Source of the DNA: an uncultured Dehalococcoidia bacterium
Lineage (GTDB): Bacteria > Chloroflexota > Dehalococcoidia > Lucifugimonadales > UBA1127
DNA: 64,000 bases
Direction: 5' to 3'
NCBI GenBank assembly: GCA_951812285.1
Contig: OX638292.1
Span: 1,464,551 to 1,528,550, forward strand
Positions 1,622 through 61,584 of this stretch are shown here, in pieces. The notes under the pieces were generated by a model. That model had not been told where the DNA came from and did not search any database. It worked only from the letters and a program-made list of their open reading frames with translations. The number at the start of each line of letters is the position of its first letter. The stretch's first letter is position 1. The translations under genes and the position numbers were made by a program.

Positions 1622-2950
1622 ATGCTCACGCAAGTAGAGACGGATCTGCTCTGTCGAGTAGGTCCCGGCACACCCATGGGTGAGCTCATGCGGCAGTACT
1701 GGCTCCCCGCAGCATACCCGTGGGAGCTTGAGCCCGACGGACAGCCGCAGCGCGTCCGCCTGCTGGGCGAGGACCTTGTCGCGTGGCGCGACTCCGAGGG
1801 CAACATCGCATTCACGCAGCAGCGCTGTCCCCATCGCGGGGCGGGCCTCTTCTTCGGGCGGAACGAGAAGGGCGGCCTCAGGTGCGCCTACCACGGATGG
1901 AAGTTCGACGTGAACGGCGACTGCATCGACATGCCCAACGAGCCGGCCACGAGCAACTTCAAGAACAAGATGCACATCACGTCCTACAAGGGCGCGGACT
2001 TCGGCGGCGTGGTCTGGTGCTACATGGGGCCCAACCAGGAGGAGCCGCCCGGACTGCCGCAGTTCGAGTGGTGCCTGGTGCCCGAGGAGCAGCGCAGCCA
2101 CTACCGGCGCTTCATCTACGAGTGCAACTGGATGCAGGCGCTGGAGGGCGAGCTCGACTCGACGCACGCGCCCATCCTCCACGGCCGCCTGAACATCGAG
2201 GACAGCCCGAAGTACGGCGGCTACACGGTCGAGAAGGCGGCGGACTTCTTCGTGGAGAAGACGTCGTACGGCCTGGTGTACGGCGCGGAGCGGAAGCAGC
2301 CGGACGGGAACTCATACTGGCGCGCAAGCCACTTCCTCTTCCCCTTCTACGGCATGTTCCCGGCGACAGCGTCAAGGGTGCCTCTGTCCATCTACGTGCC
2401 CATCGACGACTACTACACCATGCACTTCGGGTTGCAGTGGCACCCGACGGAGGCGATGGAAGGCCCCCGCTACCCGACACCGGACCTGCCTGACGAGCCG
2501 GGCGTGCTGACGCCCAACCAAGGGCCGTGGAAGCCGGAAAAGAAGGGCACCTTCTACGCCAACTGGTGGCCGGAGATCAGCCCGGAGACGGACTTCCACA
2601 TGGATCTGTGGGCCAAGAAGCACAGGAACTTCACCGGCATTCCCAGCGTCCGGCAGCAGGACGCGGCGATCGAGTGGAGCATGGGCGCCATCATGGACCG
2701 CACGAAGGAGCACCTGGGCACGGCGGACGCGAGCATCATCCGGGCACGGCGGCAACTCATCGGCGCGGCGCGGGCGTTGGTCGAGGACGGCACGCCGCCG
2801 CCAGGATCCAACGAGCCCGAGGCCTACAAGGTCCGCTCCTGTGCGGTGGTATTGCCCGGTGGCGTAAACTGGATGGAAGCGCTGGGCGACTGGTTCTTCG
2901 CCCGCACGACGGAATACCCCGAATCGGCCGGGTCACTGACCGGCCAGTAG
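1622..2950 (+). CDS. Rieske [2Fe-2S] aromatic-ring hydroxylating/demethylating oxygenase alpha subunit (phthalate-dioxygenase-like family)
   Basis: 442-aa ORF with AGGAGG RBS. Rieske motif CPHRGAGLFFGRNEKGGLRCAYHGWKF (C-x-H ... C-x-x-H). No beta subunit or reductase lies adjacent. Confidence 0.85.
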   Translation: MLTQVETDLLCRVGPGTPMGELMRQYWLPAAYPWELEPDGQPQRVRLLGEDLVAWRDSEGNIAFTQQRCPHRGAGLFFGRNEKGGLRCAYHGWKFDVNGDCIDMPNEPATSNFKNKMHITSYKGADFGGVVWCYMGPNQEEPPGLPQFEWCLVPEEQRSHYRRFIYECNWMQALEGELDSTHAPILHGRLNIEDSPKYGGYTVEKAADFFVEKTSYGLVYGAERKQPDGNSYWRASHFLFPFYGMFPATASRVPLSIYVPIDDYYTMHFGLQWHPTEAMEGPRYPTPDLPDEPGVLTPNQGPWKPEKKGTFYANWWPEISPETDFHMDLWAKKHRNFTGIPSVRQQDAAIEWSMGAIMDRTKEHLGTADASIIRARRQLIGAARALVEDGTPPPGSNEPEAYKVRSCAVVLPGGVNWMEALGDWFFARTTEYPESAGSLTGQ

Positions 2951-2979
2951 CCTGAACGCTTAGGGAGAGGAGTCGAAGG

Positions 2980-4266
2980 ATGCTGACGCCAGAAGAGAAC
3001 GAACTGCTGTGTAGGGTCGGACCGGACACCCCCATGGGCAACATGATGCGGGAGTACTGGTTCCCGGGACTGCAGTCGATCGAGCTGCCGGAGCCTGACT
3101 GCGCGCCTGTTCGCATCAAGCTGCTGGGTGAGGAGCTCGTTGCGTTCCGTGACAGCAACAACAACGTTGGCCTGATCGACAACTACTGCCCGCACCGACG
3201 AGCGAGCCTGTTCTTCGGCCGGAACGAGGAGGAGGGGCTTCGCTGCGTGTACCACGGGTGGAAGTTCGACGTTAACGGTAACTGCGTCGACATGCCGTCG
3301 GAGCCGGCGGAGAGCAACTTCAAGGACAAGGTCAGGATCAAGTCGTACCGCACCCATGAGCGGAACGGCATCATCTGGGCGTACATGGGCTCGCGCGAGA
3401 TCCCGCCGGCGCTGCCGGAGCTCGAGGGGAACATGCACGACAACTACTCCATCACGGTCCTCCACAGGAACTGCAACTGGATGCAGGGGCTCGAGGGCGA
3501 GATGGACACCGTCCACGTGACGTTCCTGCACCTGGGGCACTTCACCATCTACAACACCGAGCCGGGCTCGATGAACTACCACCAGGCGAAGAACCGCTAC
3601 GGCAAGTTCAGCGTCAAGGAGACGGAGCACGGCACGTCGTACGGCATGTGGCGCCCCACGGACGATGGGCAGGAGTATTGGCGGGTCGGGCACATCCTCT
3701 TCCCGTTTTACGCGATGGTCCCGGGCATCGACAACCAGCTCGGCTCAAACGCCGGGTTCCTGTGCTACGTGCCGATGGACGACCACCACACGCTCGAGTG
3801 GGGCGTGCGGGCGCTGAAGCCGGGCGAGGAGCCTCGGGACCAGTCTCGCGACTACATCCCGAACGGCACAGGGTGGTACGACCGGTACAACCTGGACCAG
3901 AACTGGGGCAACGACTTTGAGATTGATCGTGAGGCGCAGAGGAACAACGTCAGCTTCACAGGCATCAAGGGCATTCGCCAGCAGGACATGGCGATGACCG
4001 AGAGCATGGGGAGCATCTACGACCGGACCAAGGAGCACCTGGGTACGACGGACCAGATGATCATCCGGACTCGCCGACGCTTCATGGACGCCGCTCGTGC
4101 ACTGATGGAGGACGGCACGCCGCCGCCGGGGCTGGAGACGCCGTGGGCGTACCACCAGCGGTCGGGGCAGGCGGTGCTTCCGGCGGGCGTCGACTGGTGG
4201 GAGTACACCAAGGACGTCCGGGAGCGGTTCGAGCCGAGCGGGCTGGTCATGGAGATGGGCGGCTAG
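2980..4266 (+). CDS. Rieske [2Fe-2S] oxygenase alpha subunit, paralogue of 1622..2950
   Basis: 428-aa ORF. CPHRRASLFFGRNEEEGLRCVYHGWKF. Colinear similarity to the upstream gene from the first residues (MLT..E.LLCRVGP.TPMG). Confidence 0.85.
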   Translation: MLTPEENELLCRVGPDTPMGNMMREYWFPGLQSIELPEPDCAPVRIKLLGEELVAFRDSNNNVGLIDNYCPHRRASLFFGRNEEEGLRCVYHGWKFDVNGNCVDMPSEPAESNFKDKVRIKSYRTHERNGIIWAYMGSREIPPALPELEGNMHDNYSITVLHRNCNWMQGLEGEMDTVHVTFLHLGHFTIYNTEPGSMNYHQAKNRYGKFSVKETEHGTSYGMWRPTDDGQEYWRVGHILFPFYAMVPGIDNQLGSNAGFLCYVPMDDHHTLEWGVRALKPGEEPRDQSRDYIPNGTGWYDRYNLDQNWGNDFEIDREAQRNNVSFTGIKGIRQQDMAMTESMGSIYDRTKEHLGTTDQMIIRTRRRFMDAARALMEDGTPPPGLETPWAYHQRSGQAVLPAGVDWWEYTKDVRERFEPSGLVMEMGG

Positions 4267-8395: not shown

Positions 8396-9628
8396 ATGAA
8401 CGACGGCAAGCTGTGCATATCCGCGGACTCGCACGTGGTGGAGTCGGTGGAGTTCTTCGAGCCGCTGGCCGACATGTTCGGCGAGAAGGCGCCTCGCGTT
8501 GTTATCGCGGACCCGGCGATTGGGCCGCAGCTGAATCTCGGCGACGGGCGGCTGGGGCTGAGGATCACCGGGTTCTTCATGCAAAACGTTGACTTCACCA
8601 AGCCCGAGGCACAGGAGCTCCTCGCAAAGGGCTACGAGCTCGCACGCCCCGGTTGCTACGACGTGAAGGAGCGGCTGCTGGACCAGGACATCGACGGGAT
8701 CGACGCAGAGGTCATCTACCCGAGCGTTATCTTCAACGTCTACCAGGTGGAGGACCGGAACGTGCTCAACGCCACCTTCCGGCTCTACAACGACTGGGTG
8801 GCGGACTATTGCAAGAAGGCGCCAGACCGGCTGTTCCCGCTGGCGAGCCTGCAGCTCTACGACCTGGACGAGGCCATCGCGGAGATGGAGCGGAGCAAGC
8901 TAATGGGGCACGTGGGCGCGTCCATCCCGGCGTCGGCGCCGCCAGACAAGCAGTACGTGGACCCGTGGTACGACAAGTTCTGGGCTGCCGCCGAAGAAAT
9001 GCAGATGCCGCTGAACATGCACATCTTCACGGGCGCGACAGCCGACCACGGCCTGCCCAGAAACGACCCTCGCAGCCGTGCGAACGGGCCGATGGCCTTC
9101 GCGGGCGTTGCGCTGACGGTGGCCGACATCATCCAGTCAGGCGTGTGCGAGCGGTTCCCGAACCTGAAGTTCGTTGTGACCGAGTTCGAGACGGGCTGGA
9201 TCGGCCACGTGCTCAAGCGGCTCGACTGGGCGTACGTGCGCGGGGGCGGCGAGCGGAGGATGGGGCTGCCCAAGCTGCCCAGCGAGTACTGGCGCAGCAA
9301 CTTCTACTGCACCTTCGAGGACGACCCGCTAGGCATTCGCACGCGGGACTTCATCGACGTGAACACGATGCTGTGGGGCAGCGACTACCCACACGGCGAC
9401 TCGATCTTCCCGCACTCGCAGCAGGTGCTTAGCGAGATCCTGGACGGGTGCACGCCGGAAGAGAAGTGGAAGATGACGGTGAAAAACGTCGTCGACCTGT
9501 ACCACCTGCCGTACGAGGTGACGGGACCGGAGCAGGCGCGCATCAACTACGTGCCCACGCCGGAGGTCAAGACGTGGCGGAACTCGCTGCCGTTGACCGA
9601 GGTGACGCAGTCCACGCCGATGGTTTAG
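8396..9628 (+). CDS. amidohydrolase-2 (ACMSD/decarboxylase-hydratase type) family metal-dependent hydrolase
   Basis: 410-aa ORF with AGGAGG RBS. N-terminal CISADSHVVE (metal-binding H-x-H-like start of the TIM barrel). Also DAEVIYPS, MHIFTG, WGSDYPHGDS. Confidence 0.8.
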   Translation: MNDGKLCISADSHVVESVEFFEPLADMFGEKAPRVVIADPAIGPQLNLGDGRLGLRITGFFMQNVDFTKPEAQELLAKGYELARPGCYDVKERLLDQDIDGIDAEVIYPSVIFNVYQVEDRNVLNATFRLYNDWVADYCKKAPDRLFPLASLQLYDLDEAIAEMERSKLMGHVGASIPASAPPDKQYVDPWYDKFWAAAEEMQMPLNMHIFTGATADHGLPRNDPRSRANGPMAFAGVALTVADIIQSGVCERFPNLKFVVTEFETGWIGHVLKRLDWAYVRGGGERRMGLPKLPSEYWRSNFYCTFEDDPLGIRTRDFIDVNTMLWGSDYPHGDSIFPHSQQVLSEILDGCTPEEKWKMTVKNVVDLYHLPYEVTGPEQARINYVPTPEVKTWRNSLPLTEVTQSTPMV

Positions 9629-9688
9629 TATTGGGGTGGCGGTCTCAGACCGCCTGGATTCGGGCGCCAAAGGGGACAAGGAGGAGAG

Positions 9689-10909
9689 ATGGACAAGCTG
9701 CTTTGTATCTCTGCAGACTCGCACATCGTCGAGCCGCCGGAGCTGTTCGAACCGCTGATCAAGAAGTATGGAGAACGTGCTCCGCACATGGCCGTTTCCA
9801 ATCCGGAGATGGGACCGCAGATGCACCTGGGCAACGGCAAGATCGGATTGCCGGCCGCCGGTTTCCTGCAGCAGAACGTCGACTTCACCAGCCCGCAGGC
9901 GCGGGCGGACATGAAGCGCGGCTACGACCTGGCGCTGCCGGGCTGCTACGACGTCGCGGAGCGGATGAAGGAGCAGGAGCAGGACGGCATCGACGCGGAA
10001 GTGCTGTACCCGAGCCTTCTGTTCAACGTCTACCAGGTCGAGGACCTGAATATCGTCAAGGACACCTTCACGGTATTCAACGACTGGATCACGGACTATG
10101 TCAGCCCCGCACCCGAACGCCTGTTTGCGCTCGGCGCAGTGCAGCTCTGGGACCTGGACCAGGCAATCGAGGAGATGGAGCGGTGCAAGTCCATGGGCCA
10201 CGTCGGCGTGTGCGTGCCCATCACGGCGCCGCCCGACCACCTGTACGTGGACACCTGGTACGACAAGTTCTGGGCGGCCGCGCAGGACATGGAAATGCCG
10301 CTGAACATGCACCTGTTCACGGGCGCGACGGACAACCACGGCCTTCCGCCCCGGCAAGCGCCGAGCCGTGCAAACGGCCCCATGGGCTTCGCCGGCGCAG
10401 CCTTCACCATTGCCGACATGATCCAGTCCGGCGTCCTGGAGCGTTTCCCGAACCTCAAGGTCGTCATCACCGAGTTTGAGACCGGTTGGATCGGGCACGT
10501 GCTGAAGAGGCTTGACTGGGCGTACATCCGCGGCGGCGGCGAGCGGACGTCGGGGCTGCCGATGCTGCCGAGCCACTACTGGCTGCGCAACTTCTACGCC
10601 ACCTTCGAGGACGACCCTCTCGGCATTCGGACGCGCGACTTCATCGGCACGAAGACGCTGATGTGGGGCAACGACTACCCGCACGGCGACTCCGTGTTCC
10701 CGCACTCGCAACAGGTGCTGAGCGAGATTCTCGACGAGTGCACGGCGGAAGAGCGGTACGAGATGACCGTGAAGAACGTGGTCGAGCTGTACAATCTGCC
10801 GTTCAAGCTTGAGGGCCCGGAGCAGGCCAAGGCCAACTACCTGGACTTCGGCAAGGAGAAGACCTGGCGGGCGTCGCTGCCCGGCTACGCGACGGCGCTG
10901 ACCGGCTAG
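9689..10909 (+). CDS. amidohydrolase-2 family protein, paralogue of 8396..9628
   Basis: 406-aa ORF. CISADSHIVEPPELFEPL, DAEVLYPS, MHLFTG, WGNDYPHGDS. Colinear with the upstream gene. Confidence 0.8.
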   Translation: MDKLLCISADSHIVEPPELFEPLIKKYGERAPHMAVSNPEMGPQMHLGNGKIGLPAAGFLQQNVDFTSPQARADMKRGYDLALPGCYDVAERMKEQEQDGIDAEVLYPSLLFNVYQVEDLNIVKDTFTVFNDWITDYVSPAPERLFALGAVQLWDLDQAIEEMERCKSMGHVGVCVPITAPPDHLYVDTWYDKFWAAAQDMEMPLNMHLFTGATDNHGLPPRQAPSRANGPMGFAGAAFTIADMIQSGVLERFPNLKVVITEFETGWIGHVLKRLDWAYIRGGGERTSGLPMLPSHYWLRNFYATFEDDPLGIRTRDFIGTKTLMWGNDYPHGDSVFPHSQQVLSEILDECTAEERYEMTVKNVVELYNLPFKLEGPEQAKANYLDFGKEKTWRASLPGYATALTG

Positions 10910-13798: not shown

Positions 13799-14148
13799 TG
13801 GTGGAGACGGGGGAGAGTCGAACTCCCCGTCCAAGAAGCGCTCAAGGGGATGTACTCCAGGCGTAGCCGCTGTATTGGGTTTCGCCATCGCAGCCCCCGG
13901 CGGCAGGGTCTGGTCAGGCTAGCCGAGACTGGACTTAAGCCTTCGCGGATCGGCGTGAGCTAGGGCCGCACCCTGTTTTTGTTGCGCCCGGCTCTTCCCT
14001 ACAGGGAAGGGAAGGACGGACGGGCCGCTCTAGGCGGCCAGTGCGAGTTCGCGCTCGCCAGTTACTTTTGTTCCGCCTGTTTAACGAGGAGGGCGGACCT
14101 CGGCCTGCAATCCCGCTCTGCTACCCCCTGTCGAAACCACGCGTCCCC
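13799..14148 (-). ncRNA. ssrA: tmRNA (SsrA), one-piece
   Basis: Minus strand starts GGGGACGCGUGGUUUCGACAGGGG and ends GGACGGGGAGUUCGACUCUCCCCCGUCUCCACCA. Acceptor stem has the G3:U wobble. Internal tag frame ...GGC GAG CGC GAA CUC GCA CUG GCC GCC UAG gives ...GERELALAA* (14030-14059). It lies immediately next to smpB. Confidence 0.93.
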
Positions 14149-14203: not shown

Positions 14204-14707
14204 CTAGCGGTACTCCTTCATGTGCCGCTGGGCCTCGAGGTCGAGGTCGCGGGCGATGATGGCGTCCTTCTTGCTGTACTGTCGCTTGCCCTTGGCGAGG
14301 CCCAGGAGCACCTTGGCGACGCGGCCCTTGATGTAGAGGCGCAGCGGGACGATGGTGTGGCCCTTCTGCGAGACGGCCACTGCGAGGTCGTCCATCTGGT
14401 TACGATGGAGTAGGAGCTTGCGCGGGCGCCTGGGCTCGTGGTTGTGGATGTTGCCCTGCTCGTAGGGGGCGAGGTGCATGCCCTCGAGCCAGAGCTCGTG
14501 CTTGAGCTCGCGGGCGTAGGCGCCGCGGAGGTCGACCTTACCGGTGCGGATGGACTTGATCTCGGTGCCGGTCAGCACGAGCCCGGCCTCGACGGTGTCG
14601 AGGATGTCGTAGTCGTAGGTGGCGCGGCGGTTCACCGCGACGGTGCCTCCGCGCTTGAGCGTCGATTCGGGGGACTTGGCCGACTTCCGGCCCTTCTTAG
14701 TGGACAT
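14204..14707 (-). CDS. smpB: SsrA-binding protein SmpB
   Basis: 167-aa ORF. VAVNRRATYDYDILDTVEAGLVLTGTEIKSIR... and a basic C-terminal tail. Adjacent to tmRNA. Confidence 0.93.
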   Translation of the reverse strand: MSTKKGRKSAKSPESTLKRGGTVAVNRRATYDYDILDTVEAGLVLTGTEIKSIRTGKVDLRGAYARELKHELWLEGMHLAPYEQGNIHNHEPRRPRKLLLHRNQMDDLAVAVSQKGHTIVPLRLYIKGRVAKVLLGLAKGKRQYSKKDAIIARDLDLEAQRHMKEYR

Positions 14708-18196: not shown

Positions 18197-18640
18197 TCAC
18201 GCTCCCGCGCCCGCCATGCCGGCCAGGATCTCGTCGGTGCTCGGCATGCCGCGCTGGTAGTAGACGACCACACCTCGCTTGTCGATGCCTACCACGGTCC
18301 GCAGCGGTGCGATCTTCTGCAGCGTTCGCGCACCGTAGGCCTGACCCACCTCGCCGCCGTCGTCCACGAGGAGGCTGAAGGGGAAGTTGTTCTTCTCGCT
18401 GAACCGCTGGTGGGACTTCATGCTGCCGGGGTTGACGCCAAACACCACGGTTTCGGCGTCCTCAAACCTGTCCCTGTCATCACGCAGGGCACACAATTGC
18501 CGCGTTCAGCCGGGCGTGTTGTTCATGGGGTAGAAGACCAGCACGACGTTCTTCTTGCCCCGAAAGCTGGACAGCGTCACGTCTTCATCGGGCGGGGTGC
18601 CCTTCAGGGTGAAGGCAGGGGCAACCGATCCCACGTCCAT
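18197..18640 (-). CDS. bcp: Bcp-type peroxiredoxin (AhpC/TSA family) with in-frame TGA = candidate selenocysteine at the peroxidatic position (U45, resolving C50)
   Basis: ORFs 18506..18772 and 18197..18496 are in the same frame, separated only by TGA (18506-18508) plus 3 codons. The joined sequence reads VLVFYPMNNTPG-U-TRQLCALRDD, colinear with the FYP...TPGC....C..RD motif of Bcp. ATG 18640 has a GGAGG RBS. Confidence 0.75.
18469..18493 (-). promoter_or_regulatory. candidate bacterial SECIS stem-loop for the peroxiredoxin TGA
   Basis: RNA UGU(G)CCCUG-CGUGAUGA-CAGGGACA. The stem starts 13 nt after the UGA (position +16 counting the U as +1) and the apical loop spans +25 to +32. Confidence 0.5.
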
Positions 18641-27584: not shown

Positions 27585-28859
27585 TCATTGACGCAAGTCT
27601 CCCGTGTCAGTCTCATCGGACGGAGCGCCGCCTCCCTGGCGGGCCTGTTCCTCCGGCGGGCGGATGTTGCGGAACTGGTGGAGCAGGAGGAGATCGTAGA
27701 TGACCTTCACCGTCCCGCCGATGATGAGGGGGGCGCCGGGCAGCGAGGCAGCGACGAGCTGGCCGGCGATGTAGGGCGACGGGAGCTGTCCTCCCTGCCT
27801 ACCGAGCTGGGAAAGCCCCGCCGCAACGGTCTGTTCCGCCGGGTCCACCACGGCCATCGTGTAGGACTGCCGCGTCGGCACGTCCATCTGCGAAAGGAAG
27901 CCACGGAGGAGCATCATGCTGACCGCCAACCACGCGAGAGGCGCGAATGCCATTCCTATAGACAGCAGGTTCGCGGGGATGTGCGTAAATACCATCGTGT
28001 TGAGTAGGCCGATACGCTTTGCCAGCCATACGGCAATGAAGGCAGACAGGCTGCTGAGAACGTTGACGCCGAAGAAGACTCCGGCGAGGGACTCCAGCGA
28101 CAGGTCAAACCGGATGCTGAACCAGTAGGCCATGAAGGTCTGGACCATGAGCCCGTCACCTGCGGAGTCCATCGCACCGAGGGCCGTCAGCCTGTAGATG
28201 ATGCCTTTCGAGCGGCGGGGCCATGAGAACAGCGAGCGCCTCCCCTCAGTCGCAGGGGCTTCGGCGGCCGAGGACAGCCGCGTGAATACAAGGACGATCA
28301 GAACGCCGACGCACGCGTACAGGAAGAACATGACGCGGTAGGCGTCGAGCGCTTCCACGCCGAGCACGCGTTCCAAGATCACCGGCATGCTGCTGAACAG
28401 GGCGCCGAGAGCTGCCGACATCCCGCGGATGACGTGGTAGTAGGCGAAGAGCGTCGTGCGGTTGGTATCGAGGGTGGAGCGTGCGAGGATGGGCTGCTCG
28501 AGCGCGCCGTGTGCGCCGCGGTCGGCGCCGCCAAGGCCAAAACCCGCGAAGCCGGCGACGAGGAGCAACGGGAGGAAAGACTCGGTCAGCGGAAAGAGGG
28601 CGCCACCCAGGATGGTGAGGAGGGTCAGGGCGATGAAGAACCGCTTACGGCCAATGCGGTCGGCGAAGAGGGAGGCGAGCATGATGAAAAAGGTGCTACC
28701 TGCCAAGACCGCAGCAAGAACAGCGCCAATCCTTACGGCGTCGAGTCCCGTCTCGGCCAAGTAGAGGCCGAGCATGACGCTAACGAAGCCGACGGAGAAC
28801 GAGCGCAGGCTGGAAGTCAGCAGTACAAGGCGGCCGTCGGGGGCGAGCCATCTTAGCAC
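27585..28859 (-). CDS. MFS transporter (424 aa), downstream copy of a tandem pair
   Basis: 12-TM-like hydrophobic profile. The GTG start shares its G with the TAG stop of the upstream copy (TAGTG). Confidence 0.8.
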   Translation of the reverse strand: MLRWLAPDGRLVLLTSSLRSFSVGFVSVMLGLYLAETGLDAVRIGAVLAAVLAGSTFFIMLASLFADRIGRKRFFIALTLLTILGGALFPLTESFLPLLLVAGFAGFGLGGADRGAHGALEQPILARSTLDTNRTTLFAYYHVIRGMSAALGALFSSMPVILERVLGVEALDAYRVMFFLYACVGVLIVLVFTRLSSAAEAPATEGRRSLFSWPRRSKGIIYRLTALGAMDSAGDGLMVQTFMAYWFSIRFDLSLESLAGVFFGVNVLSSLSAFIAVWLAKRIGLLNTMVFTHIPANLLSIGMAFAPLAWLAVSMMLLRGFLSQMDVPTRQSYTMAVVDPAEQTVAAGLSQLGRQGGQLPSPYIAGQLVAASLPGAPLIIGGTVKVIYDLLLLHQFRNIRPPEEQARQGGGAPSDETDTGDLRQ

Positions 28860-30133
28860 TAGCTCGCTCCTTCAGCGGGGGTAGTCGCTCTTGCATCGGC
28901 CTGTTCCGGCTGGCGGACCTGCTCCTCCGGCGGGCGGACGTTGCGGAACTGCTGCCAGAGGAGGAGGTCGTAGACGATCTTGATGAGGCCGCCCGCAATC
29001 AGCGGGGCGCTGGTGAGCGATGCGGCGACCAAGAGACCCGAGATGTATGGGGAAGGCATCTGCCCGCCCTGCCGGCCCAACGTCGACACGCCGGCGGCGA
29101 CGGTCTGCTCCTCGGGGGCGACGACGGCCATCGTGAAAGACTGGCGCGTGGGGACGTCCATCTGCGACATGGACTCGCGAAGCAGCAACATAGCTACTGT
29201 GAGCCACGCGAAGGGTGAGAAGGCCATCGCAACGATGAGGAGATTCGCGGGGATGTGCGTCCACACCATGGTGTTGATGAGACCGATGCGCCTGGCGAGC
29301 CATGCCGCCATGATGGCCGAGAAGCTGCTGATGATGTTGGCGGCGAAGAAGACGCCTGCCAGCGACTCGAGTGTTAGGTCGTAGCGGAGGCTGAACCAGT
29401 AGGCGAGGAAGGTCTGGAACATGAAGCCGCCGCCGAAGGAGTCCATCGCGCCGAGGGCGGCGAGCCTGTAGATGATGCCCTTGGAGCGACGCGGGAGGGT
29501 GATGCCGACGCGGCGGCCATCGACGGCGCGTGCCTCTGCGGCCGGGGTGAGCCGCAGGTAGACAAGGGTCACGAGCGCGCCAACGCCGGCGTAGAGGAAG
29601 AACATCAGCCGGTAGCCGTCGAGGAGGTCCATGTCCAGGGTGTTCTCCAGGATGACGGGCATGCCGCTACAGAGCGCGCCGACCGCGGAGGCGAGGCCGC
29701 CGATAACGTTGTAGTAAGCGAAGAGCATCGTGCGGCGCTCGGCGGGGGCGGCCCTCGCGAGGACGGGCTGCTCAAGCGAGCTCTGCGCCGCGCGGTCCTT
29801 GCCGCCGAGGCCGAAACCGGCCATGCCTCCGACGAACAGGAGCAGGACGAAAGAGTCGGTCAGGGGGAAGAGGGCACCGCCGATAATGGTGAGCATGCTG
29901 AGGGACATGAAGGAGCGCTTGCGTCCGAAGTGGTCGGCGAAGAGGGACGCGAGGGTGGTGAAGAAGGCGTTGCCGGCAAGCACGGCGGCGAGCACCGCGC
30001 CGACGCGGACCGGGTCGAGGCCAGTCTCCCTCAGGTAGAGGGCCAAGAGGACGCTGACAAAGCCGACGGCGAACGAGCGCAGGCTGGTCGTCAGCAGGAT
30101 GAGGCGACCATCAGGGGCGAGCCAGGGCAGCAC
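28859..30133 (-). CDS. MFS transporter (424 aa), upstream copy of a tandem pair
   Basis: Colinear with 27585..28859 (MLPWLAPDGRLILLTTSLRSFAVGFVSV vs MLRWLAPDGRLVLLTSSLRSFSVGFVSV). Starts 4 nt after the valS stop. Confidence 0.8.
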   Translation of the reverse strand: MLPWLAPDGRLILLTTSLRSFAVGFVSVLLALYLRETGLDPVRVGAVLAAVLAGNAFFTTLASLFADHFGRKRSFMSLSMLTIIGGALFPLTDSFVLLLFVGGMAGFGLGGKDRAAQSSLEQPVLARAAPAERRTMLFAYYNVIGGLASAVGALCSGMPVILENTLDMDLLDGYRLMFFLYAGVGALVTLVYLRLTPAAEARAVDGRRVGITLPRRSKGIIYRLAALGAMDSFGGGFMFQTFLAYWFSLRYDLTLESLAGVFFAANIISSFSAIMAAWLARRIGLINTMVWTHIPANLLIVAMAFSPFAWLTVAMLLLRESMSQMDVPTRQSFTMAVVAPEEQTVAAGVSTLGRQGGQMPSPYISGLLVAASLTSAPLIAGGLIKIVYDLLLWQQFRNVRPPEEQVRQPEQADARATTPAEGAS

Positions 30134-57329: not shown

Positions 57330-58103
57330 CTAAAGCTCCACAGGGTTGCTGCTTTCCATCCATTCCGCGAAGGAGCCGTCGTAGAGGCGGACGTTGTAGC
57401 CGGCGTGCCGCATGGACAAGTAGGCGAGCGATGCCCGGACGCCGCTCCGGCAGTAGGCGACGACCGGCTCTTGCGGCGCGATGCCCGCTGCGGACAGCCG
57501 GCTGCGCAGGAGGTCCGGCTCTATGAGGAGCTTTCCTTCGGCGCCGGTCATGTCGGAGTGGGGCACGTTCACGGCGCCGGGGATGTGGCCGGGGCGCAGG
57601 TCTGCTTCCGCTTGACCAAGGAATTCCTCTGAGGTGCGTGTGTCCAGGAGTTTAGCGTCGCCCGGGGCAGCTACGTCGGCCGTGGTGGCTCGCACTGACG
57701 GGTTGAGGTGCGGGGAAAGGGACGAGGGTTGCGCCTTTACGGGCCGGTAGAGGACCTCCCGGCCCTGTTCCTTCCAGGTGTCGAAGAAGAGGTCCATGAC
57801 GTGGACGTCGGTGCGGCCGAGATACTCGAGGACCCAAGCCGCCATGGCGGCATTGCGGCCGTCATGGTGGTCGTAGAAGATTGGAATTATGTCATATCCC
57901 AAGCCAGCGTCGCCGAAGGCAGCGGCAAGCTGCTCCGGCGGGCCGAGGCGGCCGTTCGAGCCCTGCAGCTTCTTGTACGGGACGCTTACGGCTCCTGGAA
58001 GGTGGCCCATGAGGTAGCGCATGGCCGACCGGGGGTCGATTAGCAGGTAGCCCGGCTGTCCGATATGGTCAGAGACCCAATCCGCGGTAACAAAGGTGAC
58101 CAT
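57330..58103 (-). CDS. two-domain rhodanese (thiosulfate/3-mercaptopyruvate sulfurtransferase family)
   Basis: ATG 58103 overlaps the stop of the upstream OsmC gene (TGATG). Active-site loop CRSGVRAS in the C-terminal domain. Confidence 0.8.
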   Translation of the reverse strand: MVTFVTADWVSDHIGQPGYLLIDPRSAMRYLMGHLPGAVSVPYKKLQGSNGRLGPPEQLAAAFGDAGLGYDIIPIFYDHHDGRNAAMAAWVLEYLGRTDVHVMDLFFDTWKEQGREVLYRPVKAQPSSLSPHLNPSVRATTADVAAPGDAKLLDTRTSEEFLGQAEADLRPGHIPGAVNVPHSDMTGAEGKLLIEPDLLRSRLSAAGIAPQEPVVAYCRSGVRASLAYLSMRHAGYNVRLYDGSFAEWMESSNPVEL

Positions 58104-58636
58104 CAACCAACCATTTCGAAGTCCGTCTCGACCGAGGTTGGCTTGGCGACGGACTGAGTGACAGGGGAGCCTTCGACGGCCAGGCGCCAGATCTCCCGCA
58201 GGGTCGGCTCGTCGGCGTCGGCGCGGACGAAGCACTTGGCCGAGATCCTGCCGTAGCCGGGGTTGCCCTCGTCCTCAACGCCAGCCCACTTGCGGATGTT
58301 GTCGAAATAGCCCTCGACGGCTATCTCCAGGTCGTGGATACGGACGCCCTGCTTGGTGGCATTGACCACGAAGCCGACGGTCATGCAGCTTCCGATGGCC
58401 GACAGAAGCTGCTCGTGGGCGCTGGCGGCTGCGTCGGTGGCGGTCAGGTCGCCGGGCTCGTCCATCTCAACCTGGTGGTTGCGCATGTAGGCCTTCGCCC
58501 GCATGCCGTCCTGCCAGACGACGCGCGACTTCCAGGGGCCGGTTACAGCCTGGAAAACCTCGGGGTCCCGAAAGGAATCGAGGACTTCGGCCAGCTTCTC
58601 CTGGGGCAGCCCGTTAAGGTTTCTCTCCTCGGTCAT
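58103..58636 (-). CDS. OsmC/Ohr family peroxiredoxin-like protein
   Basis: ATG 58636 six nt after AAGGAG. LLSAIGSCMTVG motif is typical of the OsmC fold. Confidence 0.75.
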   Translation of the reverse strand: MTEERNLNGLPQEKLAEVLDSFRDPEVFQAVTGPWKSRVVWQDGMRAKAYMRNHQVEMDEPGDLTATDAAASAHEQLLSAIGSCMTVGFVVNATKQGVRIHDLEIAVEGYFDNIRKWAGVEDEGNPGYGRISAKCFVRADADEPTLREIWRLAVEGSPVTQSVAKPTSVETDFEMVG

Positions 58637-58691
58637 GTCCAACTCCTTTGCATGCCCGTACACACTTGGGCGACTGCTCAGTATTCCGGCG

Positions 58692-60033: not shown

Positions 60034-61584
60034 TCAGGGCCCCGTGTACAGCTCCGTGTCCGGGTGGAACTGGTACCAGCCAAACCAGAAGGACATGTGC
60101 GTGGGTATGCGCGCAAGCTTCTCAGTCCCGTCAGCTTCATTGACGAGGTATTCCTCGGTCACCCGCCACACATCGCCGTCGCCGTCCACAACCTGGACGG
60201 GGAGGAGGAGGCTGTTGGCCTCGCCCGGCGCGAGCTTGAATGTCCTGCCGCCCCGGTAAAAGGACCTGGCGCCCTCACTTCCGGCTGAGGCGAGCACCAG
60301 GATCTCCTCGCCGCCCACCACGTCGTTGATGATGCGCGCCACTCGAAGTGCGTCGGAGGCGTAGGCCTTGTAGCTGTCGCTGAGTTGGACGCCCAGGACG
60401 ATGTCCTTCGTTTCGAGGCCGTCGTGCCGGTCGGGGACCGGGAACATCGTCTCAGGGTCGGTGAAGTAGCCGAAGTAGATGGCCTCCGGGTCGTCTTCGG
60501 GAGCGTAGAAATCAGCGTTGTATACGCCCGTCGACTGGGCGAGCACCGTAGTGTCGGGATGGAGTGCGAGCCACTCCTCCCACGTTGTGAGCATGACGGG
60601 GAAGAATTCGAGCTTGATGCCGGAGTCCCACAGCGGACCGATGACAGGCTCGCTGGTGAGTTGGTTCCAGAGGGAGTTGGTCAGGCGGTCGTACATGACC
60701 TTGTTGCTGCGGTAGAGCATGCCCGACGTGCCAAATGTCGTTGGCTCTCCGTTGATTTTGGCGGAATACACGATTCCGGTGCCGCAGAGGGTTCAGTAGG
60801 CAAGGGAGATGGGCTCACCTCCCAATATGTCGTTGGCCATCTCATGGGCGTTCACGATCCGGAGCGGGTAGGCCCTGTGCTTGCCGTTGATAGACACGCC
60901 GAAGACCCGGTCGGTCGGCAGCAGGTAGTCCTGGTCGTCCGCAGCGACGACGGGGGCCTGTTCCAAGGGCGGGATGCCGTCGGGCCGGACGCCTCCCCAC
61001 GCGATTTCCGCGACGTTAATCCTGGACCCCTGCTCCGCCGGGGACAGGAAGTCGCCGAATCTGTAGTCGATCAGATTCATGAGATCGACCTTCCACGCCA
61101 CGTAGCCATCAGGGGGTGGGTAGTCGTGGCCATTCCGGCCAAGCCATTCCATCCACTCGAACCAGCCACGGGCGTAAGCCTCAAAGTACTCGCCGGTGAG
61201 CTCAGAGAGAGCCTCCTTGGTGTCCTCAACGAGCGTCCAATTCCCGAAGAAGCGGAGCATCTCGATCATCACGGGGACCATAGACTTGTCGTTATTGGCG
61301 ACAGCCAGCTTGATGGCCTCCTGGGATTGCGCGGGCTGAGTCCCATAGCCCGCGAATAGCCTGTACATGTTCTCGTTGGAGTCGTAAGGCCCAGAGGGAG
61401 CCGATGCGGCAGTCGGCTCGGCCGCCGCAGTTGCAGGCGCGGCGGCCACTTCCGCTTCCGCGGGCACCGCCGTCGGCGTGACCTCGAGTTCAGGGAACGG
61501 CTCATCCACCCCAGAGCATGCCACCGTGACAGCCACAAGGGACGTTACCGCCAGCAAAACGAATCGACGCAAGAGCCTGTTCAC
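60034..61584 (-). CDS. DUF3179 family lipoprotein with in-frame TGA = candidate selenocysteine in a U-x-x-C motif (U264, C267)
   Basis: ORFs 60793..61584 and 60034..60771 are in the same frame, joined by TGA (60793-60795) plus 7 codons. The junction reads GGEPISLAY-U-TLCGTGIVYSAKING, where DUF3179 proteins (from memory) carry Y-C-P-L-C. GTG start after GGAAGGA. Lipobox VTVAC. Confidence 0.72.
60760..60783 (-). promoter_or_regulatory. candidate bacterial SECIS stem-loop for the DUF3179 TGA
   Basis: RNA GG-cac-C-GGAAU-CGUGU-AUUCC-G-CC. The core stem spans +19 to +33 from the U of UGA and the apical loop +24 to +28. Confidence 0.45.

Follow-up and report, generated by a model that had tools for sequence, protein, structure and literature searches.

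Proteins with the domain of unknown function DUF3179 (pfam11376/PF11376) are already listed as a prokaryotic selenoprotein family with a UxxC/T motif, in which U is selenocysteine (Sec) (PMC9312934, 2022; PMC13188914, 2026). PMC9312934 credits the listing to the Olavius symbiont metagenome work of Zhang & Gladyshev (2007), and the listed examples are MBW1804167.1 and MDJ0986319.1. Here we analyze a DUF3179 gene in a 64-kb stretch of DNA (contig OX638292.1 of an uncultured Dehalococcoidia bacterium; 64,000 nucleotides, hereafter "the window"). Positions 60034-61584 very probably form an intact gene whose product is an exported and lipid-anchored selenoprotein of the DUF3179 family, with UGA codon 264 encoding Sec in a U-T-L-C center. 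The initial annotation of this DNA, made from the letters alone, raised the possibility of an unlisted selenoprotein family. Because the family is present in both PMC9312934 and PMC13188914, that claim of novelty fails, and the gene is instead a well-supported member of an already catalogued selenoprotein family.

Like the listed DUF3179 selenoproteins, the window protein has the same Pfam domain, its putative Sec is the first residue of U-x-x-C, Cys homologues exist, and a stem-loop follows the UGA. Unlike them, it comes from an uncultured marine Dehalococcoidia-type genome, not the source cited in PMC9312934, and its N-terminus adds ~140 mostly helical residues as well as a lipoprotein signal. 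As a discovery the gene adds little, since the family is catalogued and the abundance of selenoproteins in marine Dehalococcoidia is also established. Several details may nevertheless go beyond the lists: (i) the predominance of the Sec form in marine Dehalococcoidia, (ii) a near-invariant 15-nucleotide (nt) core of the putative Sec insertion sequence (SECIS) that dictates the peptide, (iii) the intermixing of Sec and Cys forms, and (iv) a small group of loci with a different downstream hairpin.

An intact DUF3179 gene with a recurrent in-frame TGA

The open reading frames (ORFs) 60793..61584 and 60034..60771 on the minus strand are the two halves of a single frame, and the TGA at 60793-60795 is its sole interruption (Table 1). 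The 24 nt between the ORFs read TGA ACC CTC TGC GGC ACC GGA ATC. Translation through this junction gives ...GGEPISLAY-TGA-TLCGTGIVYSAK..., that is, ...EPISLAY-U-TLCGTGIVY..., and the peptide that spans position 264 is IVNAHEMANDILGGEPISLAY-U-TLCGTGIVYSAK. The translation bears out the coordinates and junction sequence given in the initial annotation. The G+C fraction at third codon positions (GC3), 0.78 on the 5' side of the TGA and 0.84 on the 3' side, gives both halves a coding appearance; the predicted full-length protein is ~55 kDa. In the ORF-based map of 50 genes, 14 stops are TGA (including those of both ORFs of the DUF3179 gene), 29 are TAG and 6 are TAA. TGA is therefore an ordinary stop, which closes 13 of the 49 other predicted genes and also ends the DUF3179 gene itself, and there is no genome-wide reassignment of this codon.

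With U replaced by Cys, the read-through protein matches the Pfam DUF3179 profile with an E-value of 6.5e-76 and 256 bits, where the gathering cut-off is 27. It runs unbroken from residue 202 to 510 against profile positions 2-292 of 292, and thus the TGA lies inside a single domain, with U264 under a Cys column. As the initial annotation had supposed, both halves are intact: the frame has no other stop, and the one DUF3179 match runs across the TGA.

Among about 5.8 billion proteins searched, 2,994 relatives were found, and the best 120 of them (P0001-P0120) were aligned with the query. Nearly all of these 120 are full-length, at about 430-590 residues and 41-55% identity. The residue in the TGA column is Cys in 117/120 and the residue three positions later is Cys in 119/120, within the motif C-T-L-C-G, which puts the TGA on the first Cys of a conserved CxxC as originally proposed. 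In two relatives (P0098 and P0101), both motif cysteines are lost (A-Y-D-V-Q-T-G), indicating that the CxxC center is not needed by every family member. The Cys forms, which are the family majority and measure about 540 residues, share with the window protein its architecture and the position of C-T-L-C-G at the identities given above. They differ in having TGY for TGA, in lacking the hairpin described below, and in the residues after the motif, which are mostly G-I-A-Y-H/S in Cys forms and G-I-V-Y-S in Sec forms. The two forms are intermixed in similarity space, and a Sec form is the nearest neighbor of six Cys forms, suggesting repeated switching between Sec and Cys.

One genome per GTDB species was scanned with a degenerate pattern for L-A-Y-TGA-T-L-C-G-x-G-I, and TGA was found at this codon in at least 119 species-level genome loci. 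Among the 80 titles displayed for these loci, 76 are Dehalococcoidia or Chloroflexota metagenome-assembled genomes (MAGs), including a SAR202 bin and UBA1141. The frame remains open for about 240-255 codons after the TGA in all 119 loci, unless the locus ends first, and for at least 230 codons before it in 106/119. All 119 translations align with the window protein across the TGA at 39-84% identity, and the closest among the loci listed is L023 (84%). These genome loci were picked by a pattern that contains the TGA, whereas a scan of metagenomes was seeded by six peptides that exclude the TGA column. The initial annotation had proposed counting TGA against TGY in relatives; in this second scan, seeded away from the site, 29 of the 34 relatives covering it have TGA and 5 have TGC. 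Among these marine relatives, Sec forms are thus in the majority over Cys forms by 29 to 5. Two separate TGA-form DUF3179 genes (L002 and L056) lie on a single Dehalococcoidia chromosome, OZ240229.1, so the Sec form occurs as paralogues in one genome.

Two other explanations for the interruption can be judged from this recurrence. In the first, the TGA is an assembly or sequencing error at 60793-60795 or the mark of a recent pseudogene; nothing beyond the mere presence of a stop codon speaks for it. The same TGA with intact frames in at least 119 independent genome assemblies and 29 metagenome contigs refutes both an error and a pseudogene, and the GC3 of 0.78 and 0.84 on the two sides also speaks against them. 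In the second, the UGA terminates translation, and either the two ORFs are expressed separately or only a 263-residue N-terminal product is made, as in a split gene or a regulated truncation. A GTG is present 21 nt after the TGA, and some termination at Sec-UGA codons is normal. However, this GTG is a Val codon in the conserved hairpin loop, without an evident ribosome-binding site, and the downstream half would be without a signal peptide. In addition, the TGA sits within one domain that matches as a single stretch, and the codon and the open frame are kept at 39-84% identity in 148 loci, where drift would be the expectation for a split gene. Because the TGA recurs with intact frames, a split gene is very unlikely.

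A conserved hairpin downstream of the UGA

Directly downstream of the UGA, the message can form a hairpin that lies 15 nt after this codon (C-GGAAU, loop CGUGU, AUUCC-G). Counted from the U of the UGA, nt 19-33 (GGAAUCGUGUAUUCC) form a 5-base-pair (bp) stem and the loop, and a sixth pair between nt 18 and nt 34 closes the stem. A possible lower GG/CC helix would lengthen the element to 60760-60783. Across 119 sequences (the window and 118 loci), the entropy at third codon positions is 0.2-0.4 bit over nt 21-33, as compared with 1.1-1.6 bit at flanking free synonymous sites. The search pattern fixes much of nt 1-24, which tempers this comparison: only the free third positions and nt 25 onwards are independent evidence in the genome-locus set. 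The low-entropy region does continue past nt 24.

Base pairing within the element is maintained as well. In an explicit count, 94.9% of the cells of the 6-bp helix are paired, as compared with 17-64% for slid partners. The closing pair 18-34 occurs as C-G (57 sequences), U-A (34) and G-C (2). It joins nt 18, at the synonymous third position of its codon, to nt 34, the first base of an Ala GCN or Thr ACN codon 16 nt away. The table of C/U by G/A at this pair is [[61,3],[0,34]], and 97/114 are paired against 69.6 expected; these covariation statistics are uncorrected for phylogeny and are to be read with that caution. An alternative closing pair, 15-34, showed no association in the pair counts and was rejected. 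In one locus (L130), a double compensatory change to GGGAU/AUCCC turns Ser into Pro. The hairpin is found in 29/29 of the metagenomic TGA forms and in 0/5 of the TGC forms, and the loop CGUGU is present in 138/148 TGA forms.

The bacterial SECIS model specifies a loop of 3-9 nt with G among its first two nucleotides, a stem of 4-16 bp and a spacing of 16-37 nt (PMC13188914 Fig. 2A), with an energy of -7.5 kcal/mol or lower (PMC13188914). Like this consensus (bSECISearch model; PMC13188914), the DUF3179 element lies directly 3' of the UGA within coding sequence, and its loop (5 nt, with G second and then U), stem (6 bp) and UGA-to-loop distance (20 nt) are all within the model. Unlike the consensus, its stem is short and weak and bears no resemblance to an Rfam family; it would serve as a putative SelB site. 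The experimentally characterized bacterial SECIS example is that of E. coli fdhF.

Thermodynamics and motif databases tell against a SECIS at this site: (i) for the element in the window, folding the 6-bp hairpin by itself gives -4.4 kcal/mol and folding nt 4-48 gives -7.0 kcal/mol, just short of -7.5; (ii) the fold of its 66-nt segment (-10.6 kcal/mol) is no better than that of shuffled sequence (z = 0.34); (iii) RNAalifold found no consensus structure in 119 aligned downstream segments; and (iv) Rfam gave no SECIS family, with chance-level matches only, in the whole window at gathering thresholds and in 60650-60850 at permissive ones. The 148 TGA forms have a median energy of -9.7 kcal/mol, and 128 of them pass -7.5. 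The SECIS prediction that the initial annotation had called for thus stands for loop, stem, G and spacing and is borderline for energy (-7.0 vs -7.5). The case for a putative SECIS is comparative rather than thermodynamic. Despite strong comparative support, the window element misses the usual free-energy filter, as do the elements of about 14% of relatives. This shortfall is relevant to the database entries, 12.6% of the total, that are reported as lacking a canonical SECIS. The near-invariant GGAATCGTGTATTCC core, 15 nt after the TGA, provides an easy diagnostic for annotation, where gene callers split or mistranslate the DUF3179 Sec gene.

By the standard bacterial route, SelB carrying Sec-tRNA(Sec) would bind the downstream hairpin when the ribosome reaches the UGA, and codon 264 would be read as Sec, so that U-T-L-C replaces the usual C-x-x-C of the family. 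We infer both Sec insertion and SelB binding from these comparisons. Because the RNA element is inside the coding sequence, the hairpin fixes the peptide G-I-V-Y-S. This bears on one protein in the alignment, P0106, which has W at the Sec column followed by G-I-V-Y-S and is most likely a mis-annotated selenoprotein whose TGA was rendered as Trp by the gene caller.

A rival reading is that the UGA is recoded to a residue other than Sec, for example Cys (by a tRNA with a UCA anticodon and a SelB-like factor) or Trp or Gly (by near-cognate read-through). The inserted residue is not identifiable from sequence alone, and the W of P0106, a public gene call, shows that annotators treat this codon in different ways. 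However, TGA is a normal stop in this genome and the signal is local and SECIS-like. Moreover, a column of Cys in homologues makes a classic Cys/Sec pair, the lineage is a documented Sec user, and a W that precedes the SECIS-encoded G-I-V-Y-S is most simply a mistranslated TGA. We therefore regard recoding to another residue as distinctly improbable and retain Sec as the residue at codon 264.

Four TGA-form DUF3179 genes (L031:237-293, L039:5585-5641, L077:1017-1073 and L089:6988-7044) are without the GGAAUCGUGUAUUCC core. By MAG title, L039 is Nitrospinota, and L031 and L077 are simply "bacterium". L031, L039 and L077 have another downstream sequence in common, which could pair as GGAUC-GGG-GAUCC nearer the UGA; the DUF3179 family may thus have two types of SECIS.

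Probable selenocysteine use in the host, predicted export and possible function

Sec insertion requires a host that decodes Sec, and here the window itself speaks against our reading. No selA, selB or selD is among its 30 Pfam-annotated genes, and ARAGORN found no tRNA-Sec in the 64 kb, nor in 157 further loci. The window is ordinary chromosome, with genes for dnaN, secA, ftsK, RNase J, transfer-messenger RNA (tmRNA), citrate synthase, Rieske oxygenases and amidohydrolases. We infer the Sec machinery of the host from its lineage. In a related locus, L010:3643-4116 gives a weak tblastn match to an E. coli SelD query (27% identity over 160 residues, E 1e-6). The matching stretch lies within a few kb of a TGA-form DUF3179 gene and may be SelD or another protein of the AIR-synthase family.

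A second TGA gene in the window is a candidate peroxiredoxin selenoprotein. Its ORF reads ...VFYPMNNTPG-TGA-TRQLCALRDD..., and its read-through contains a full AhpC/TSA domain (PF00578; E 3.4e-32, profile positions 1-123 of 124). We take the TGA to be at the peroxidatic Cys position of Bcp-type peroxiredoxins. A hairpin, CCCUG-CGUGAUGA-CAGGG, follows with 21 nt from UGA to loop, and its loop starts with CGUG as in the DUF3179 element. The window-wide scan for in-frame TGA was very noisy at 65% GC, and only the DUF3179 and peroxiredoxin sites held up. UBA1141, a Dehalococcoidia bacterium, has a TGA-form DUF3179 gene with the hairpin (L042), and it is among the top ten selenoprotein-rich bacteria, with 49 genes, in a database limited to species with a Sec pathway (PMC13326102). 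Marine Dehalococcoidia are documented as selenoprotein-rich (PMC13326102), and Chloroflexi are Sec decoders with their own type of tRNA-Sec (PMC1794560, PMC5389517). The second TGA gene, UBA1141 as a carrier and the Chloroflexi as Sec decoders thus lend indirect support to Sec use in this host.

The lipoprotein signal noted in the initial annotation is present as MNRLLRRFVLLAVTSLVAVTVA-C23. The N-terminus runs M1...VTVA-C23 and is followed by an Ala/Pro/Glu-rich tether to about residue 65. Like signals (basic, hydrophobic, [AGS]-C) occur in 89/106 related loci. The sequence MNRLLRRFVLLAVTSLVAVTVA-C23 also fits the lipobox pattern, [LIVMFWSTAG]x2-[LIVMFYSTAGCQ]-[AGS]-C. Export by the Sec translocon (the secretion channel, not the amino acid) and lipidation at Cys23 would place the protein on the outer face of the cytoplasmic membrane. 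An exported Sec protein with a U-x-x-C motif, as the initial annotation proposed, remains the best reading of the Cys/TGA column, the recurrence of the TGA, the hairpin confined to TGA forms and the second TGA gene.

An AlphaFold model of a Cys homologue 52% identical to the window protein has a predicted local distance difference test score (pLDDT) of 85.9 and a predicted template modeling score of 0.79; in the region equivalent to the tether, pLDDT is <50. The model shows a helical N-terminal region and then a beta-rich domain with a repeated strand/helix pattern. The DUF3179 domain is an internal tandem duplication, with 26% identity between its two repeats along 133 residues (E 4e-9). U/C-x-x-C is found in the first repeat only, and the second has A-S-A-G-S-E-G there. 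In a viral library, Foldseek matched the model to an uncharacterized giant-virus protein, A0A1V0SD44 (BFVD; Indivirus ILV1), with an E-value of 2.4e-8 and a target-normalized template modeling score (TM-score) of 0.61. This is the only significant structural neighbor of the model and suggests that a DUF3179-like fold may also be found in Klosneuvirinae.

Our best guess is that U264 and C267 would make up a reversible selenenylsulfide redox center, which we favor because the protein is an exported lipoprotein with U-x-x-C. The activity would be that of a thiol/selenol oxidoreductase or a peroxide/disulfide reductase of unspecified substrate, with Sec more reactive than Cys. Like the exported or thiol-oxidoreductase UxxC selenoproteins of marine metagenomes (DsbA-like, thiol-disulfide isomerase-like and Prx-like), the DUF3179 protein has U-x-x-C for C-x-x-C and, judging from its signal peptide, is extracytoplasmic. 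Unlike these proteins, it has a predicted duplicated beta-rich domain rather than a thioredoxin fold: there is no thioredoxin-type Pfam match in the window protein and no thioredoxin-like PDB match for the homologue model. The DUF3179 protein is thus not a thioredoxin-fold member; it may work like such an enzyme.

Several searches offered the redox proposal no help. Foldseek against the PDB gave nothing significant for the homologue model (best E 0.47; faint Rieske-ferredoxin-like matches, probability 0.41), and a PDB sequence search gave no relative of the DUF3179 protein. The related loci have no conserved gene neighborhood (the commonest neighbor is in 15/119), and no characterized DUF3179 member was found in a literature search, which leaves a redox role a guess from the motif. 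That search also found no 75Se or mass-spectrometry demonstration of selenium in any DUF3179 protein, and NCBIfam has no model for DUF3179.

The main functional rival is that U-x-x-C is a metal or metalloid site (for example for Cu, Hg, Zn or Fe), possibly together with His247 and His342. The protein would still be a selenoprotein, and outside the cytoplasm it would chaperone, sense or detoxify metals. Across the family, His247 and His342 do not vary and E248 hardly does; several UxxC/UxxU selenoprotein families in the same published tables handle metals (a cation-transporting ATPase, a putative mercuric reductase and a CobW-like family); and the faint Rieske-ferredoxin-like matches point the same way. 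However, these structural hints are not significant (E >0.4; query-normalized TM-score <=0.12), and no metal-transport genes recur beside the DUF3179 gene. A metal site is possible but, on balance, somewhat unlikely, and we keep the selenenylsulfide center as the working proposal.

A broader proposal is more speculative, and we think it doubtful as a whole. Throughout the marine Dehalococcoidia, SAR202 among them, DUF3179-Sec would be a mostly Sec-dependent enzyme acting outside the cytoplasm, with an unsolved fold and a chemistry unrepresented among characterized selenoenzymes. The GGAAUCGUGUAUUCC core and the CGUG loop start common to the peroxiredoxin element would then be a Chloroflexota-specific SelB signature that energy filters under-call. 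DUF3179-Sec is a reasonable target for studies of selenium use and cell-surface redox in abundant deep-ocean Chloroflexota.

Feature coordinates and other genes of the window

Table 1. Features of the DUF3179 gene and of the second TGA gene in the window
Feature	Position	Strand	Details and basis
Predicted selenoprotein gene, 516 codons	60034..61584	minus	GTG start 61584-61582, putative Sec-UGA codon 264, TGA terminator 60036-60034; sequence and translation
In-frame UGA (U264), first position of U-T-L-C	60793..60795	minus	Cys column in homologues; TGA recurrence
TGC (Cys267), partner of U264 in U-x-x-C	60784..60786	minus	Cys in 119/120 homologues
SECIS-type hairpin, nt 18-34 from the U of UGA	60762..60778	minus	Synonymous-site conservation, pair counts, association with TGA forms
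DUF3179 (PF11376) domain, residues 202-510	60055..60981	minus	Pfam profile; internal tandem duplication
Lipoprotein signal peptide MNRLLRRFVLLAVTSLVAVTVA-C23, lipobox T-V-A-C	61516..61584	minus	Translation; like signals in relatives
Possible Shine-Dalgarno-like element (GGGAAGG), 6 nt 5' of the start codon	61591..61597	minus	Read off the sequence
Candidate peroxiredoxin selenoprotein gene	18197-18640 (ATG 18640); TGA 18506-18508; hairpin about 18472-18489	minus	Pfam read-through match

Just downstream of the MetE-like neighbor, 57330-58663 (minus strand) encodes a two-domain rhodanese and an OsmC-like protein. Sec forms of both families have been published from ocean metagenomes, but the two proteins here are Cys forms (AYCRSG and GSCMTVG). 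As listed, the two ORFs share 133 nt, so that the true start of the rhodanese probably lies more to the 3' side. The arrangement is not kept in related loci.

The tmRNA gene and an adjoining ORF lie at 13799-14148 and 14204-14707 (both minus). The tmRNA has the tag peptide GERELALAA and an Rfam score of 147 bits; the ORF is presumably SmpB-like, judging from its sequence. Adjacent gene pairs with similar N-termini are found at 1622-4266 (Rieske/LigXa-like oxygenases), 8396-10909 (Amidohydro_2 enzymes) and 27585-30133 (major facilitator superfamily transporters), where the Pfam assignment is based on one member per pair. Duplications of this kind would be in keeping with the expanded paralogue families known from SAR202-type Chloroflexota.

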